From an uncultured bacterium (lineage in GTDB: Bacteria > CSSED10-310 > CAZUFC01), in assembly GCA_964619725.1 (NCBI GenBank), contig CAZUFC010000205.1, positions 1 through 10,614 of the forward strand: a DNA stretch of 10,614 nucleotides, given 5' to 3'. Position numbers and translations under genes: made by a program. Below the pieces are notes generated by a model. The model did not search any database, had not been told where the DNA came from, and saw nothing but the letters and a program-made list of their open reading frames with translations. Every line of letters begins with the position of its first letter. Within the stretch, counting starts at the first letter, position 1. Below are positions 1,939 through 10,220 of this stretch, one piece after another.

Positions 1939-2037
1939 TTCAAAAAATTTGAACTTATGCCTTCTTCCAAGCAACTGTTTTTATTATATTTCAAAAAAGG
2001 GATTCAAAAATTTTGAAAAAAGTTCAAAAAATTTGAC
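1939..2037. promoter_or_regulatory. Three 15-bp palindromic sites TTCAAA-N3-TTTGA(A/C); candidate upstream activator sites for a sigma54 enhancer-binding protein
   Basis: ttcaaaaaatttgaa 1939-1953, ttcaaaaattttgaa 2003-2017 and ttcaaaaaatttgac 2023-2037. Start-to-start spacings are 64 and 20 bp, and the sites lie about 100-180 bp upstream of the predicted start. Confidence 0.6.
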
Positions 2038-2072
2038 CCCCGTTTGCCGTTCAATATAATACGAATTAATAA

Positions 2073-2085
2073 AAACAATAACTTA
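2073..2085 (+). promoter_or_regulatory. IHF-like binding site
   Basis: aaacaataactta has one mismatch to WATCAANNNNTTR, has an AT-rich 5' flank, and lies between the palindromes and the -24/-12 box. Confidence 0.5.
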
Positions 2086-2101
2086 CGGTCCGACAATAAT
2101 G

Positions 2102-2117
2102 CGGCATGAATCCTGCT
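2102..2117 (+). promoter_or_regulatory. Sigma54 (RpoN) -24/-12 promoter
   Basis: cGGcatgaatcctGCt: GG at 2103-2104, exactly 10 nt, GC at 2115-2116; close to the consensus TGGCACGnnnnTTGCW. Confidence 0.7.
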
Positions 2118-2127
2118 TCAGGATAAT

Positions 2128-2405
2128 CGTCCGCTGCGGCCGCACGCAGATACTCTATGTCCGATAGGTTGGGTTAAGGGGGCGTATTCCGACCCGCCCA
2201 AAAGGGAAAGACTGCGCCCGTAAGAGAAGCAAGCCCGAAACCAATCGGGCGGGGGAGGGCCCGAATAAAGGGGGAGGTTCTTTTCCGCTGATTTTGTGCC
2301 TTGGGTGTTTTAATTCAAATAGCCCTGGGACTGCTACGTTGAATAAGTCGTTGAATCCGTGGCAGACCGCACAGGTGCGTAATTAGACTGCTGCCGCATT
2401 CAGAA
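2128..2405 (+). ncRNA. Candidate structured non-coding RNA, family not recognised
   Basis: GC-rich stretch without a credible ORF, directly downstream of the sigma54 box, with several stems (2134-2149, 2180-2219, 2233-2250, 2303-2325, 2359-2397). Boundaries are approximate. Confidence 0.5.
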
Positions 2406-3247: not shown

Positions 3248-4853
3248 TCAATCGTTTTTCGTGACGAAAATGCCCAGGGAACCGTCGAATTTCCCTTTAA
3301 GCGGTTTAACTTCTTTTGATTTCATGACTCCAGAGCAAGGACCGAGGGCGGCATTAAACCGTGTTCCTTCTTTGGCGCGAAAGCCTTCCAGCAGGATCAC
3401 GCGATCGCCGGCTTTATATGTGACGCCTGTACCTTCTCCTCCTGTGATGATGCGTGTGGACTGAATTTCCTCTTCGGCTTCGTAATGCTGGAAGCCGGTA
3501 TAGTTGGGATTGCTGGGATCGTTTTGGGGTGTGAGATTGTGGGATACGGGGCAATGGGAGTAAGTATCCGATCTCCAGAGTCCGCGCCCGTAGGTACCTG
3601 CAGTGATAGAGTTATTCCTGATTTCCAGTTCAGTGACGATTACATTGGGCAATCCGTTCATAAAGGGAATCCAGTCGCCGATATTATTGTCCCTGTAGAA
3701 AACGCCGACGTCGATTCCCACATATATGCCGTCGGCGCTGCCTGTTTCGTAAGCGATGCAGTTGACGGGCAGATTGGGCAGCGATCCGGAAATATTCGTC
3801 CAGCTTGAGCCTGCATTGTTGGAGTAAAAAACTTTATTGCCGTCCTGATAACCAGAGAGTGTGACGAAAACTTCAGAAGAAGTATCAGGATTCACGGCTA
3901 TATAGGTGATAGATGAACCGACAGCAGCGGGGATGCCGGCGGTGACGTCCGTCCAGGAAACGGAAGCAGGATCGGCATTGATGTTGTTCGACATGAGGAG
4001 GGTCGTTCCATCTGATGCGTAAAACCTTCCCGTATTGTTTATGCCTTGAGCCATGGCGTCGAGGTTGTTGGGAATGCCTGAGTTAAGGCTGGCCCACGAG
4101 GTCCCTGAATCTGTTGAGCGGTAGACTTCGCTCCACCCTGCGAAAATAGTGGTTGAGTTTTGCGGATGCAGGTGAAAAGGGGTGAGCCAGGAGCCGCTTT
4201 CCCCGGAAGGTCGAATTTCGGTATTGGTATTGCCTTGATCCGTAGACCTTTTAAGGTTGCCGTATTGTGATTCAAAATAGACTATGTTGGAGTTATTCGG
4301 ATCGATGGCGCATTCGAAACCGTCGGCGCCCCATATATGCGTGAATGCGGAATCGGTCCAGACGTTGCTTCCCTGATCCTGCGTACCGCCCAGTACCAGG
4401 TTGGTTGAAGCATCGGTTCCGGCGATGCGGTAGAACTGGGTATTAACGAGTGTTGCGGAGATGTCTGTCCAGTTTTCCGCCTGGTCTGAGGATTTGAAAA
4501 CGCCGCCGTCGCTGCCGCAATAAAGAATACCAGCTTCCGTTTGAAGATAGAGCATCTCCTTTTTTATCCAGGTAGTCCTGCCATTCCAGCCAGGTTTTTG
4601 CGGTCCGGTTTACTATCGTGCCGTCGGGAAGAATCCGGTTCTGCATGATGAATTCCCATCGTTTGTATTGCTTGTACCCGGAACCCCTGCCCTTGAATTT
4701 ACCCATGAAATGCTGTTCAACTCTGTCTTGAATTTCTTTGAAGTCCTTCGTATCAACTTTTTGCCACAAGGAAAACGAAGAATCGGCGGCGAAAGAGTTT
4801 AATGCGCCGCAGAAAAGAAACGAGAAGAAGATCAGTATACAGAATATTTTCAT
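3248..4853 (-). pseudogene. Secreted BNR/Asp-box (VPS10/GH74-like) beta-propeller gene with a C-terminal '3-coathanger stack'-like domain, split into ORFs 4443..4853 and 3248..4555
   Basis: The 5' ORF has an RBS (gaaagga), a signal peptide and the family N-terminal motif KGRGSGYKQYKRWE. The 3' ORF has GSDGGVFKSSD, GGTQDQG, WGADGFEC, Asp-boxes (RSTDQG, RSTDSGTSW, SNNAGSSW), GLPNV, GTYGRGLWRS and YKAGDRVILLEGF. The frame changes near 4520-4530. Confidence 0.75.
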
Positions 4854-4886: not shown

Positions 4887-6755
4887 TTAATGTTTCATTT
4901 CAGAATTTAAAGTTTTCAATCGGCATACTTCATCTTTCAGGACATTGATTTCCCTGGATTGCTGAATGGTATGCAGCGTCAGTATCTCGATCTGTTCCAG
5001 CAATTTGGCCTGCATAAAGCCCAACTGTATACCGCCATTTTCAACTTCTTGGGCCGAGGGAAGACCGGGAAGCCTGCCGTTTCGAGCGATGCATTTTTCC
5101 AGTTCACTAAGCGTAATGAGTTCATAATCATCTTTGAACACGTAATCCGGCCAGGCTGCGGAATTCTGTACCATGACTTCCTCACACATAATTTTTCCAT
5201 CGACTGACAGTTTATATCCTGTGGCGGTAGTCGTTGTACCGATGCCGACTTTTCCTTCAATGATCATCCCATCAACAGGCGCCGCCGTTCCGGCATAGGA
5301 GCTCCCGACAGAGAGTGAACCGTTGACGCTTAATTTGCTTCCCGGATTGTCTGTCCCTATTCCCACGCTTCCCGAACCGTCAGGAGCGTAGAGTCTTCCG
5401 TTATCGATTGAAATATGATCGGATATGGTTGAATCGGTATGAGTATGACTGTCGTTTATTACGATGAGGTTGTCGTATGGACCGGAGACGTCGCCTGAAA
5501 AACCTGTCGCGACGGTCAGGTCATTCGATGCATTTTTGTCCCATCCGTCGAATCCCGATCCGCTGATACTGCCGTTTACAGTCAATCCTGTACCGGTAAT
5601 AATTCCGGCCACATCCAATTTAGTGCTGGGATTGGTCGTTCCGATTCCGACCTTGCCGGTCCCGGAGGGCGCATAGAGCCTTCCGTTATCAATCGAGATA
5701 TTGTCGGCAATCCTGGAATCGGTATGATTATGACTGTCGTCGATAACCGTTATGGAATTATAAACTCCTGAAACATCCCCGGAAAACGCCGTCGTTGTCG
5801 TCAGATCATTCGACGCATTCGTATCCCAGGCGCTGAAGCCTTCACCCATCACAGCGCCGCTTATTGATAAACTGTCTCCGCAGATGAGTCCGACAACATC
5901 CAGTTTGGCGGCAGGGTAAGCCGTGCCGATGCCTAAATTACCGCCTTCTATCGTCAACGATTCGTCGCCAGTCAGGCGCAGGCGCATGTCATAATCCGAA
6001 ACGTCGTCATCAGAAAAATCAATATAAGCCGAACCTCCTCCGCTGCTCCTTATCTCCAGACCGGGATTCCCGTTCAGCTTGATCTGCGCCGTCCCTGCAA
6101 CTTCCAGTCTCGCAGTCGGACTTGTCGTTCCGATTCCCACATTCGCCGATCCGGGAGTCGTGTAAAGCGCTCCGTTATTTATCGTTATGCTGTCAGGAAC
6201 TTCGCTGTCACCGTCAGGCTGATCGTCGTCGGTTCCGCCGATGCTGTGGAAATCGTCCGAGCAGACAAGTTTTATATTGGCGAGAGTTGTAGGCCATATA
6301 CTGAGGTAGTTATGCCCATCTACCTTGTCGGCATCATTCGCCATTTCCGCCTGAAGCGCAAAACCGGCGCTGACGATTCGCTGATCAGGCGTCAGGCGCT
6401 GCATTCCCGTCGTTCCGTCCGTAAACCATATACGCAGAAAAAGATCGTCAGCGCTGAATATAGATGCCGGTATAGTCTCCATATCCTCACCAAGAATTAG
6501 GCTGTATAAACCACCGGTAACCGTCACCGCCACGTTCGTCGCAGGCGGCGTATTCCCGTCGTTCGACCAGTACTGTTCCGTTCCCGTTTCATTCACGATC
6601 GCAAAACGGAAATATCCTGTTCCTGTGAATTCCGCTCCGTCTACCTCGATCCGTCCCTGATAATTCATCATACCGGGTACAGCCCCCACGGAATCAAAAG
6701 ATGCCAGAATCGTAATAACAACCGTTAGACACTGTGCTATATACTCCCTCCTCAT
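4887..6755 (-). CDS. Secreted tail-fibre/adhesin-like protein (GxVGIGT repeats, C-terminal WPDYVF chaperone-like/coiled-coil domain)
   Basis: RBS aaaggag; signal peptide followed by VPGMMNYQG; five V/LGIGT repeats; DSHxH motifs; C-terminal KLSVDGKIMCEEV..WPDYVF..LPGLPSAQEV..KLLEQIEILTLHTIQQ and a coiled coil. Confidence 0.85.
   Translation of the reverse strand: MRREYIAQCLTVVITILASFDSVGAVPGMMNYQGRIEVDGAEFTGTGYFRFAIVNETGTEQYWSNDGNTPPATNVAVTVTGGLYSLILGEDMETIPASIFSADDLFLRIWFTDGTTGMQRLTPDQRIVSAGFALQAEMANDADKVDGHNYLSIWPTTLANIKLVCSDDFHSIGGTDDDQPDGDSEVPDSITINNGALYTTPGSANVGIGTTSPTARLEVAGTAQIKLNGNPGLEIRSSGGGSAYIDFSDDDVSDYDMRLRLTGDESLTIEGGNLGIGTAYPAAKLDVVGLICGDSLSISGAVMGEGFSAWDTNASNDLTTTTAFSGDVSGVYNSITVIDDSHNHTDSRIADNISIDNGRLYAPSGTGKVGIGTTNPSTKLDVAGIITGTGLTVNGSISGSGFDGWDKNASNDLTVATGFSGDVSGPYDNLIVINDSHTHTDSTISDHISIDNGRLYAPDGSGSVGIGTDNPGSKLSVNGSLSVGSSYAGTAAPVDGMIIEGKVGIGTTTTATGYKLSVDGKIMCEEVMVQNSAAWPDYVFKDDYELITLSELEKCIARNGRLPGLPSAQEVENGGIQLGFMQAKLLEQIEILTLHTIQQSREINVLKDEVCRLKTLNSEMKH
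5320..5828 (-). repeat. Intragenic tandem duplication with a 285-nt (95-aa) period
   Basis: WDTNASNDLT..FSGDVSG..DDSHNHTDS..ISIDNGRLYAP..VGIGT is repeated as WDKNASNDLT..FSGDVSG..NDSHTHTDS..ISIDNGRLYAP..VGIGT. The Trp codons are at 5826-5828 and 5541-5543. Confidence 0.9.
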
Positions 6756-7443: not shown

Positions 7444-8013
7444 ATGACAGGAACGAAAGCTTTTCTATTTCAACTGGGGTTTACTTTGTTTCCGCTTCTT
7501 TTCATTTTCGGCGGCTTGCACTTGATGAAGACTTATGAGAAAAGGCGCCGGTTAAGGGTTTATCCGAAGTCCGGACACGGCTGCTTAATGGTTGCTCTTG
7601 CCGGACTCATTATGGCGTTTCTGGTAGTTCGATTCTTCGGTCAGGTTTATATTCACGTTTCATTGGGAGGAACTGAATCTCATGACGTCGAATATATGCA
7701 AGTATACGACGTAAAGATAAGCGAACCGGAGGATTTGGAGCGCATGTCGGAGGCGATACGTGATAATCAATGGTTCATGTCGAACCGCAGAAGCAGAAAC
7801 AGGCAGGGGATTCTTTTGATCAGACATAAAAACGGAGAGGAAGAGCTTTATCCTCTTTATTACTACAGGCAGAAGAACGGAGCCTGGATCACGATAAGTT
7901 CGGGATCAGGCGGATCAGGTTGGCGTTACGGGGCCATATTTTTTCCTCGTCTGCCTGAGGCGCTGAACGAGATAGGAGTTCCATTTCCACGGGAAAGCGA
8001 CAAGGATGGGTGA
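7444..8013 (+). CDS. Hypothetical membrane protein (two N-terminal hydrophobic helices plus a soluble domain)
   Basis: 189-aa ORF with an RBS-like gagg upstream; hydrophobic segments FLFQLGFTLFPLLFIFGGL and CLMVALAGLIMAFLVVRFF flank a basic loop. Confidence 0.75.
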   Translation: MTGTKAFLFQLGFTLFPLLFIFGGLHLMKTYEKRRRLRVYPKSGHGCLMVALAGLIMAFLVVRFFGQVYIHVSLGGTESHDVEYMQVYDVKISEPEDLERMSEAIRDNQWFMSNRRSRNRQGILLIRHKNGEEELYPLYYYRQKNGAWITISSGSGGSGWRYGAIFFPRLPEALNEIGVPFPRESDKDG

Positions 8014-8696: not shown

Positions 8697-10220
8697 TTAT
8701 CTTCCGGGTCCGTATCGCCATTCAACGATGGCCATTTCGCCTGAGATTTCTGATAGTTCCTGATTAAGCATCGCTCCGTAGAAGAAGAGTCCCGACATGG
8801 ACTCTTCGCCTGTATCCGGCCATAGGAAGGGTTCGATGACGGTTATCGTTGTCGTGCCTGTAGGAATAGTCATGGTCTTATAGTCAAATTCGTCATATTC
8901 CGGGGGATGAAAACAGGTCCAGGAGTCCCAGAAGTAATAGCGGCCATAAACGTCCAGGACGAAGAAAACGGGGAGGTTCATAACGGGCGCACCGGGATTG
9001 TCCAGAAATCCTGTGACTTGGAAGAGTTCACCGGGGTGAGCTTCAACCGGCATTTCGATTCTTACGCCGAAGGGATGAGCACCGGGCGTCGGAGTCGGCG
9101 ACAGATGCTGAAAATGAAAAAGTTCGATATCCACGCGCATCAAACCTCGATAGAATATTTCAACGGCCAGGATGGAGCCGTCCGGACTCCAGGAATGATC
9201 GCTGACGCATACTCCGCCGGCTGTAAATTCGGGATAACCCGGATCATTATAATGAGTGAGTTTTCTTTTGTCTGATCCATCGGTATTCATGATCCAGAGG
9301 TCGGTATTGAGCCATTCGACATGGCGGCAATTATCGTAGTTAATTTCATATCCTGTTGTGGTCATCCAGGTCACGGCGTCTCCCAGGGGAGAAATTTTAC
9401 CGTGTTCATCCCATTCATCCGGTTCGCCGAAGAAACCCGATGTTTCCGTTAATCGTGTCGTCTCGCCAGTTTCCAAGATCATGCACCCGAAATCCATGGT
9501 TCGGTCATCCTGAGCCTCCAGAGGCGCATAAGAAAAATAAATGCCCGCATCATCCAAAGTCCAGTCCTGTGTTTCATACCACTCAGTCGATTCGCCCGGT
9601 TCGTAATACTCAAAATTACTGAATCCCGGATTCGATTCATCGAAATCAGCAACGACTATGCGCCAGTCGCCGTAACAACCGCCGGCGCCTTCCAGATCGC
9701 CCCACAGAATGCGGTCGCCCCGTCGCGAAAAATGAGGATGAAGACTGCCTCCGGGCGGATTGCCGGAGTGAACGTTAGTCATTTTATGGACCTGATAGGG
9801 TTCAGTCGATTTCAGGTCCATAACGTACAGATCATTATAAACGCCTTTGCCTGGAGTCGTCAGCGACGTTTCAGGATGTTCAGCCATCTCCGACTGAAAA
9901 AGCAGAAACCGCCCGCCGGGATGATAGGCGGGATTGCCTGTGCTCTTGTTGGGCAAAGAAGGATGATCGCATGTCAGGCATTCATTGCCTGTTCCGTCCG
10001 GCCGAATGCGGTATACATCGTGATAACCGTCGGCGCCTCGTTTGTCATACGCTATCCATTCTCCAGTCGCCGACCAGTCCAAACGGGCCGCCCGTTCAAG
10101 AAAATCCGTGATTTCTACAAGAACGTAATCTGATGCGCTGCTGTGACACTCTTCGTGAAAAACAGATGAATGAAGCGCCAAAGTCGTCAATGCCGTTAAT
10201 CCGATTAAAATTATTTTCAT
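8697..10220 (-). CDS. Secreted TolB-like (PD40/WD40-like) beta-propeller protein with a PT linker and a C-terminal domain of unknown function
   Basis: RBS-like gagagggg; signal peptide; propeller repeats WSATGEWIAY, VYRIRPDGT, PAYHPGGRFLLF, PHFSRRGDRILW, ISPLGDAVTW, LWIMNTDGSDKRKLT, SWSPDGS; SPTPTPG linker; ~125-aa terminal domain. Confidence 0.85.
   Translation of the reverse strand: MKIILIGLTALTTLALHSSVFHEECHSSASDYVLVEITDFLERAARLDWSATGEWIAYDKRGADGYHDVYRIRPDGTGNECLTCDHPSLPNKSTGNPAYHPGGRFLLFQSEMAEHPETSLTTPGKGVYNDLYVMDLKSTEPYQVHKMTNVHSGNPPGGSLHPHFSRRGDRILWGDLEGAGGCYGDWRIVVADFDESNPGFSNFEYYEPGESTEWYETQDWTLDDAGIYFSYAPLEAQDDRTMDFGCMILETGETTRLTETSGFFGEPDEWDEHGKISPLGDAVTWMTTTGYEINYDNCRHVEWLNTDLWIMNTDGSDKRKLTHYNDPGYPEFTAGGVCVSDHSWSPDGSILAVEIFYRGLMRVDIELFHFQHLSPTPTPGAHPFGVRIEMPVEAHPGELFQVTGFLDNPGAPVMNLPVFFVLDVYGRYYFWDSWTCFHPPEYDEFDYKTMTIPTGTTTITVIEPFLWPDTGEESMSGLFFYGAMLNQELSEISGEMAIVEWRYGPGR

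Follow-up and report, generated by a model that had tools for sequence, protein, structure and literature searches.

A previously uncatalogued family of nine predicted structured RNA genes with sigma54 promoters and three-site enhancers in an uncultured bacterium

The 10,614-nucleotide (nt) contig CAZUFC010000205.1 of NCBI GenBank assembly GCA_964619725.1 (hereafter the window, by which we mean this whole stretch) comes from an uncultured bacterium of the GTDB lineage Bacteria; CSSED10-310; CAZUFC01, and an earlier note on it had proposed a complete sigma54 promoter driving a novel structured RNA of ~280 nt. Our analysis indicates that positions 2128-2296 of the plus strand are one of nine sister genes in this genome, each predicted to specify a stand-alone structured RNA of ~170 nt from a sigma54 promoter with a three-site enhancer, and that the nine RNAs are probably sibling regulators that act in trans. 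Judged from sequence, the RNA gene family is genuine and had not been catalogued before, and the sigma54 enhancer module in front of it is of textbook form and unusually clean.

Results

The assembly that contains the window (contig C205 in the numbering used here) comprises 9.17 Mb in 344 contigs and is 90.9% complete with 6.5% contamination. A blastn search of this genome found a copy on contig C185 that is 82% identical to the window, as well as further fragments elsewhere, and nhmmer with 2100-2325 as the query recovered nine copies on eight contigs, so that the homologue search proposed in the earlier note yielded nine paralogous copies within the genome itself and none in the other genomes searched (see Discussion). 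A covariance model, R1, built from the nine paralogs scored them at 110-170 bits, with the match in the window covering 2123-2291 at 121 bits, and the rest of the genome at no more than 16.4 bits. Alignment of the copies demonstrates a gene family in which every member opens with TGGCAY-N5-NTGCT, followed by blocks that are conserved well above the flanks. The window and the C185 copy are near-identical from the -24 box to ~2318, apart from the apex of one hairpin, and diverge afterwards, while the enhancer region between the palindromes has drifted; conservation of the RNA block in this comparison begins at the predicted start site and exceeds that of the flanks. Because family-wide conservation stops near 2291-2296 and C185 diverges after ~2318, the conserved unit is ~169 nt rather than 280 nt. 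The predicted RNA thus occupies 2128-2296 (+), with its start placed 12 nt past the -12 C of the promoter (2116) and its end after a U tract. A 5′ end near 2128, which had been anticipated, agrees with the spacing from the promoter box to the first helix.

As had been noted, the DNA switches abruptly to GC-rich here, from a GC content of 0.295 in 1901-2100 to 0.58 in 2101-2300, and the DNA downstream offers no credible open reading frame (ORF), those on the plus strand within 2128-2400 being at most 30 amino acids (aa) long. A gene for a small protein was rejected, as these ORFs are unconserved and the indels between copies are not multiples of three, and comparison of the nine copies thus shows no coding capacity. 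All copies carry the invariant segment GGGGGAGGGCCCGAA (2251-2265, +), which contains the 12-mer GGGGGAGGGCCC; a count over both strands of the 9.17 Mb gives exactly nine occurrences of this 12-mer, one in each paralog. The 3′ end of the predicted RNA is formed by a weak terminator-like hairpin, GGGGGAGG-UUC-UUUUCC, followed by GCUGAUUUUG (2270-2296, +; hairpin 2270-2286), with seven pairs of which three are G-C. Candidates for a hairpin with a U-rich tail were found by script past the invariant core in eight of the nine copies, mostly 30-45 nt after it.

The inability of the earlier note to match the RNA to known families was upheld. Rfam 15 cmscan at gathering thresholds gave no match in the window, and permissive E-value scans of 1800-2800, of 2110-2330 and of the paralog on contig C135 returned only chance-level matches to unrelated families (E 2.6-9.4). 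These scans of the window and of the C135 paralog gave no match to the Qrr or GlmY/GlmZ models or to riboswitch families, and ARAGORN detected no tRNA or tmRNA in the window. A full-text literature search for the invariant strings yielded unrelated primer matches only.

The promoter of the window combines all of the elements of a sigma54/activator promoter that had been described for it, in an arrangement that is stereotyped within the family. The -24/-12 box cGGCATgaatcCTGCt lies at 2102-2117 (+) and comes near the consensus TGGCAC-N5-TTGCW, its GG (2103-2104) and GC (2115-2116) being separated by 10 nt. Whether homologues keep this box had been posed as a check; it is present in all nine paralogs, 12-14 nt upstream of the 5′ helix P1 (described below) in the eight in which P1 was matched, and the ninth copy, C17, has the box together with a diverged helix that escaped the helix pattern. 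The sigma54 motif is not enriched genome-wide at this degeneracy (205 found versus ~244 expected), and therefore its weight comes from its position and co-occurrence with other elements. Upstream of the box, the three phased palindromes of the earlier note proved to be exact 15-mers of the form TTCAAAWWWTTTGAA/C, at offsets of -189, -125 and -105 relative to 2128. The distal palindrome, TTCAAAAAATTTGAA, is the third site of the triple (1939-1953), and the tandem palindromes TTCAAAAATTTTGAA and TTCAAAAAATTTGAC (2003-2017 and 2023-2037) are spaced exactly 20 bp centre to centre and are followed by CCCCC. The AT-rich spacer holds the expected IHF-like site, AAACAATAACTTA (2073-2085, +), with one mismatch to the consensus WATCAANNNNTTR. 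Such sites (at most one mismatch) occur in six of the nine paralog spacers, versus 1.5 expected from shuffles, and in four of them the distance to the box is the same, -29 to -31. One rpoN gene (DNA-binding domain match of 210 bits) is found in the genome, together with 47 matches to the enhancer-binding protein family PF00158, of which ~37 are full length, and four HU/IHF-family genes. The host thus possesses both the sigma factor and the AAA+ activators that go with a GG-N10-GC box, upstream inverted repeats and an IHF-like site, and the module predicts that the RNA genes depend on sigma54 and an activator. A sigma70-like sequence, TTGACC-16-TATAAT, is also found at 2033-2060 (+), where it matches at 11 of 12 positions and overlaps the promoter-proximal palindrome, its -35 element lying within the conserved TTTGACC; it was rejected as a promoter because the -10 element is not conserved in the closest paralog, C185.

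The enhancer palindromes recur across the genome in a fixed arrangement. The exact 15-mer TTCAAAWWWTTTGAA has 74 sites genome-wide, versus none for a complement-only control, and these form 34 clusters, 19 of which are triples composed of a pair at exactly 20 bp and a third site 65-145 bp from this pair. Of the tandem pair pattern there are 22 instances here, versus none in each of 13 other genomes of the phylum and none for a backwards control. Nine of the 22 tandem pairs precede the RNA family, with a further palindrome beyond the pair. A strict GGCAY-N6-TGCW box lies within 330 bp of 17 of the 21 multi-site clusters. REP-like repeats were considered as a source of the palindromes and rejected, since there are only 74 exact sites and nearly all are in stereotyped triples beside sigma54 boxes. 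The distance from the pair to the box is 54-78 bp in eight RNA copies and 247 bp in the copy on contig C18 (C18:48173-48453), where the spacing is like that at the transposase-like loci discussed below and the intervening DNA includes a long imperfect inverted repeat. Four more palindrome triples lack the strict box within 330 bp (C10:51077, C126:23032, C144:156 and C296:2010); that on C10 has a looser GGCGC-N5-TTGCT box.

The helices of the RNA are supported by compensatory changes among the paralogs, as the covariation check proposed in the earlier note called for. On the model-based alignment A3, 85% of the cells of the proposed helices are paired, compared to 26-48% after the partners are shifted by 1-3 columns. 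For covariation the score was 0.267, versus 0.167 ± 0.021 in shuffles, a value that none of 500 shuffles reached, although this control overstates independence because the sequences are paralogs. The 5′ hairpin P1, GUCcGCUGC-GGCC-GCAcGCaGAU (2129-2151, +), has 93.8% of its cells paired, and two of its pairs change on both sides, e.g. from U-A to G-C in three copies. Hairpin P2 (2180-2219, +; 2180-2186 with 2213-2219) has an invariant GGGC/GCCC base, with 96.8% of cells paired, above which two pairs covary by A-U to G-C and U-A to C-G or G-C exchanges. The P2 segment varies from 40 to 48 nt by changes that are not multiples of three, and it folds as a single hairpin in all nine copies (-17.8 to -26.2 kcal/mol), with an apex that is variable in sequence and length (CCC-AAAA-GGG in the window). 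P1 and P2 correspond to the stems ctgcg/cgcag and gggcgta/tgcgccc that had been seen in the window, and both are maintained in the paralogs by compensatory changes. The comparison also shows the strand of the RNA: at two positions of the helices, G-U or U-G pairs stand in six of the nine copies; read on the opposite strand, these pairs would turn into C-A mismatches, and because the G-U pairs fit only the plus strand, the RNA has the sense of the promoter.

A long-range helix pairs 2159-2165 (GUCCGAU), located between P1 and P2, with 2244-2250 (AUCGGGC) on the plus strand. It can form with 6-9 bp in eight of the nine copies, turns up in six of the nine when the minimum-energy fold is computed without constraints, and covaries, as in GUCCG/CGGAC, GCUCGC/GCGAGC and GCUCGGC/GCCGGGC, with U-A/C-G and C-G/U-A exchanges; its observed score in the eight copies was matched by shuffles 2-70 times in 2000. 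The same 3′ strand (2244-2250) takes part in a local hairpin, GCCCGA-AACCAA-UCGGGC (2233-2250, +; 2233-2238 with 2245-2250), which is possible in seven of the nine copies. The two pairings therefore exclude each other, and the RNA may have two conformations. In copies C1b and C17 the local hairpin is absent and long-range pairing is the sole option. The gcccga/tcgggc stem of the earlier note is this local hairpin, which does exist but competes with the long-range helix. Other structural proposals of that note did not survive comparison: the conserved unit does not include the stems at 2303-2325 and 2359-2397, which are not retained in C185 and belong to a stretch that folds no better than shuffles (z -0.33), and the pseudoknot between ggttgg (2167-2172) and ccgacc (2189-2194) uses the P2 apex, which has a different sequence in all other copies. 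Nothing was found that points to catalysis, which had been suggested by the description of the RNA as ribozyme-like.

The genomic setting of the nine copies favours a stand-alone RNA, as had been suggested, over a leader. The nearest downstream ORF of at least 90 aa is convergent in five copies. In the window, a plus-strand ORF of 107 aa (2406-2729) overlaps a minus-strand ORF of 69 aa (2430-2639), and a codon-usage score trained on the long ORFs of the genome gave 0.084 bits per codon for the former versus 0.233 for the latter, long genes scoring ~0.25. Because codon usage thus favours the minus-strand ORF, in agreement with the minus-strand genes that the earlier note had placed downstream, we count the next gene as convergent in six of the nine copies. 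Co-oriented downstream ORFs are found at the copies on C185, C135 and C26; they start ~200-970 nt past the RNA and their products are mutually unrelated, as are the neighbouring proteins of the nine copies in general. The alternative is that each RNA is the 5′ part of a longer transcript, i.e. a cis-acting leader or attenuator in which competing long-range and local helices control read-through. Such a mechanism would make use of the two mutually exclusive pairings with their common 3′ strand in seven of the nine copies, would suit a terminator-like hairpin that is weak, and would fit the co-oriented ORFs downstream of three copies. The next gene nevertheless points toward the RNA in six of the nine copies, the co-oriented ORFs are distant and unrelated to one another, and no riboswitch family was matched; in most of its occurrences the family does not adjoin a gene of the same orientation, as a cis-regulatory leader would. 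We therefore regard this alternative as improbable and the nine genes as probably encoding stand-alone RNAs.

The enhancer module also lies upstream of protein-coding genes, foremost a six-copy gene for a 226-aa protein whose copies are 85-88% identical to one another (C5:24975-25655, C12:95561-96238, C22:69869-70546, C22:72248-72925, C27:20659-21330 and C35:6274-6951). The protein matches Pfam Y1_Tnp (E 6.8e-10), and its best NCBIfam model is the REP-associated tyrosine transposase (RAYT), at 67.4 bits relative to a cut-off of 80; we refer to it as RAYT-like. At these loci the three-palindrome enhancer lies ~243-255 bp upstream of a GGCAY-N5-TTGCT sigma54 box, and the repeated unit is composed of enhancer, promoter and gene and nothing more. 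Relatives in the other genomes of the phylum are distant (≤41% identity). A transposase-like gene family under sigma54/enhancer control looks unusual. Enhancer and sigma54 box also precede the operon C43:25568-26700, which encodes a ComEA-like secreted HHH_3 protein (E 7e-21) and then SSB (E 7e-27), a pairing reminiscent of competence or DNA-uptake genes. Further modules are found before genes for an EF-hand protein (C43, near 50015) and a DUF3006 protein (C70). The apparent co-regulation of the RNAs with the RAYT-like and ComEA/SSB genes is the most intriguing lead and hints at a possible involvement in single-stranded DNA processes.

These genes raise the question of whether the RNA is a partner of the RAYT-like (Y1/HUH) proteins or of another mobile-element enzyme, serving as guide, cofactor or antisense regulator in a domesticated transposon-derived system. 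The identical enhancer and sigma54 module stands before the six Y1_Tnp genes and the ComEA-like/SSB operon, so that the RNAs and these single-stranded-DNA proteins are predicted to be co-expressed, and of the 14 genomes of the phylum, only this one has the RNA family or the six-copy gene family. Yet none of the RNA copies lies next to a RAYT-like gene, no complementarity to the RAYT-like 5′ regions was found beyond chance, and no Y1 transposase is known to use an RNA. The relationship of a TnpB or IscB nuclease to its omega RNA, which lies beside or overlaps the nuclease gene, is likewise not seen here: the assembly, at its 90.9% completeness, has no match to the TnpB-type nuclease family PF07282, and no neighbour gene is conserved between the copies. 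A direct partnership of this kind thus seems very doubtful.

Two observations concern the remainder of the window. Small ORFs overlap in the interval 2406-2729, one of 107 aa on the plus strand and two of 69 and 94 aa on the minus strand, and none of the three has a Pfam match. The wider neighbourhood consists largely of uncharacterised proteins, with no Pfam family at E ≤ 0.01 for the ORFs at 59-1144 (361 aa), 4887-6755 (622 aa), 7444-8013 (189 aa) and 8697-10220 (507 aa), and only weak BNR/Sortilin-type matches for the 435-aa ORF at 3248-4555 (-).

Discussion

We propose that the nine RNAs are sibling regulators acting in trans, a reading that we favour because the design of the system, with one type of activator site, a sigma54 promoter for each gene, and sister RNAs that share an invariant segment, matches that of GlmY/GlmZ and Qrr. 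According to this proposal, sigma54 RNA polymerase would transcribe each of the nine genes, and one enhancer-binding protein, bound to the pair of TTCAAAWWWTTTGAA palindromes 20 bp apart and to the third palindrome, would contact the promoter by DNA looping, with the IHF-like bend site lying between enhancer and promoter. The transcript would begin directly with P1, followed by a long composite stem in which the long-range helix closes a purine-rich internal loop, and above this come the invariant base of P2 and its variable apex. The 3′ part would consist of the invariant G-rich segment GGGGGAGGGCCCGAA, an A-run and the weak hairpin with its U tract. The nine RNAs would be redundant or additive siblings that form the output of one signalling pathway, and the invariant 3′ segment would be their working surface, by pairing with a pyrimidine-rich RNA or by binding a protein. 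Comparison of the sequences establishes the gene family, its promoter and enhancer module, the helices, the strand and the lack of coding capacity, whereas transcription and its dependence on sigma54 and an activator, the exact ends, action in trans and the effector site are inferred.

Several observations weigh against this proposal. All of the comparative support comes from paralogs of one metagenome-type assembly, which are not independent samples and of which two of the nine are near-identical. R1 detected no homologue elsewhere when applied to all 14 genomes of the phylum (this one included) and 150 relatives, the best outside scores being 22.7 and 21.7 bits, respectively, and covariation across species is missing because no other genome has yielded a homologue. 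The structural support is entirely comparative, since the folding energy of the single sequence is unremarkable relative to shuffles (z -0.14 for 2128-2296 and z -0.91 for 2128-2405), and none of the candidates for a 3′ hairpin with U tail is a strong canonical terminator. With respect to the regulator, no true palindrome was found near any of the 37 activator genes, so that linkage offers no activator candidate. With respect to targets, no 11-mer complementary to the invariant segment was found beyond about the nine genes themselves, and pairing with the 5′ regions of eight co-regulated genes gave duplex energies no better than those of shuffled controls. Finally, the genome contains no convincing Hfq (24.4 bits versus a cut-off of 27).

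The searches outside this genome define the known distribution of the family. A blastn search with 2100-2300 against 40 relatives found no homologue. Of the two marginal matches of R1, the better (22.7 bits, in genome G002) was read and dismissed as GC-rich DNA without the parts of the RNA; the other (21.7 bits) is in G014. A scan of genome contigs with an overly G/C-rich pattern was uninformative, returning at least 116 stretches, mostly from high-GC genomes; 14 of these, together with two loci from the phylum, were submitted to R1, and none matched. In metagenomes a strict pattern gave no loci and a looser one gave 36, all at ≤23.5 bits; two that were read, L173 and L174, are not homologues. 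Viral contigs gave no match to the RNA pattern or to the enhancer pattern. The metagenome and viral searches covered contigs matching the sequence patterns used. Close relatives were unavailable because all other genomes of the phylum are related only at the phylum level, and absence elsewhere thus means "not found in those searched".

Confinement to one assembly and an unremarkable folding energy would also fit the view that there is no functional RNA. What was duplicated would then be a promoter cassette, and the conserved block downstream of the promoter would act at the DNA level or be left over from the leader of a gene since lost. We consider this very improbable. Conservation begins at the predicted start and is higher than in the flanks, the helices show compensatory changes and strand-specific G-U pairs, the variable P2 apex always folds as a hairpin, and nine diverged copies keep a 12-mer that is unique to them in the genome. 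These features are instead consistent with a family of structured RNAs, the nature of whose effector is the next matter to be considered.

If the RNAs act in trans, they might do so by titrating or scaffolding a protein rather than by pairing, with a G-rich hairpin loop that is invariant (YGGG-GGAGGG-CCCG) and the purine-rich internal loop as binding sites, in the manner of CsrB/Rsm with CsrA or GlmY with RapZ. Conservation of the invariant 15-mer is far stricter than a pairing seed would require, and the segment can be drawn as a 4-bp stem with GGA in its loop, the 11-mer search and duplex energies revealed no complementary target, and the genome has one csrA gene; multicopy sponge RNAs under a single response regulator do exist. 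However, csrA (C7:53364-53893, -) is immediately downstream of fliW. For CsrA of the FliW-linked type, the known antagonist is a protein, FliW, and not an RNA, and this gene arrangement therefore weakens the case for a CsrA sponge. Moreover, GGA motifs number only ~3-5 per RNA, with a single invariant one that may sit in a loop; GGAAGG, present in the other subfamily, is missing from the copy in the window, and no gene for a partner protein is linked to any copy. On balance, titration of a protein appears rather unlikely, and regulation in trans by sibling RNAs in the broader sense is the reading that we retain.

Regardless of how the RNAs act, the enhancer defines a ready regulon of at least 17 promoters, which offers an entry point to the signal and the process, possibly DNA uptake or processing, that are under sigma54 control. 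As a speculation to which we give little credence, the nine RNAs, the six RAYT-like enzymes and the ComEA-SSB operon could form one lineage-specific regulon under a single sigma54 activator, in which the two-state RNA is a direct cofactor or regulator of DNA-uptake or single-strand-DNA-processing machinery. If true, this would represent a domesticated HUH-transposase system that uses a dedicated RNA, of a sort undescribed so far. The RNA is in addition a clean case for structural study, by virtue of its two covarying, mutually exclusive helices.

Among known systems, GlmY/GlmZ of the Enterobacteriaceae offer a close parallel, having a sigma54 promoter, three conserved upstream activator sites and IHF sites between them and the promoter (PMC3045617). 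The family described here is likewise predicted, from its sequence alone, to consist of stand-alone small RNA genes with sigma54 promoters, three activator sites and an IHF-like site, and homologous sisters share one promoter design. It differs in that Rfam scans revealed no match in sequence or structure to GlmY/GlmZ, and in that the palindrome is TTCAAAWWWTTTGAA; there are nine copies rather than two, and the host belongs to a distant, poorly sampled phylum. The site recognised by GlrR, the activator of GlmY/GlmZ, differs from TTCAAAWWWTTTGAA.

The Qrr1-5 RNAs of Vibrio are similar in another respect: five RNAs reportedly serve one pathway, and qrr transcription is said to depend on sigma54 and an enhancer-binding protein (10.1101/2021.01.08.425859; PMC10162802), the activator there being LuxO. 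As in that system, the siblings here are several, every one has a sigma54 promoter and activator sites of its own, and all share a fully conserved segment. Qrr RNAs are ~100 nt in length and Hfq-dependent, whereas the predicted RNA is ~170 nt with a long composite stem, has no Rfam match, and is found in a genome without a convincing Hfq; its conserved segment, which is rich in G, could be partly paired. CrcZ/CrcY of Pseudomonas (CbrB and sigma54, with IHF) and the Rsm/CsrB-type RNAs are reportedly RNAs under sigma54 or response-regulator control that titrate a protein (for the CbrB regulon, PMC6296734), and the nine RNAs resemble them as multicopy siblings with repeated short motifs. In contrast to these, they have neither A-rich CA motifs nor dense GGA repeats, CsrA in this genome is FliW-linked, and again no Rfam family was matched.

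Detailed work on small RNAs under sigma54 control has been confined almost entirely to Proteobacteria, with Qrr, GlmY/GlmZ and CrcZ as the examples. The present family suggests that the same logic, in which one activator and a three-site enhancer serve many sister RNAs, operates in a poorly sampled phylum, of which 14 species-level genomes were searched, with nine copies of an RNA whose predicted fold is unrelated to, and larger than, those of its Proteobacterial counterparts.

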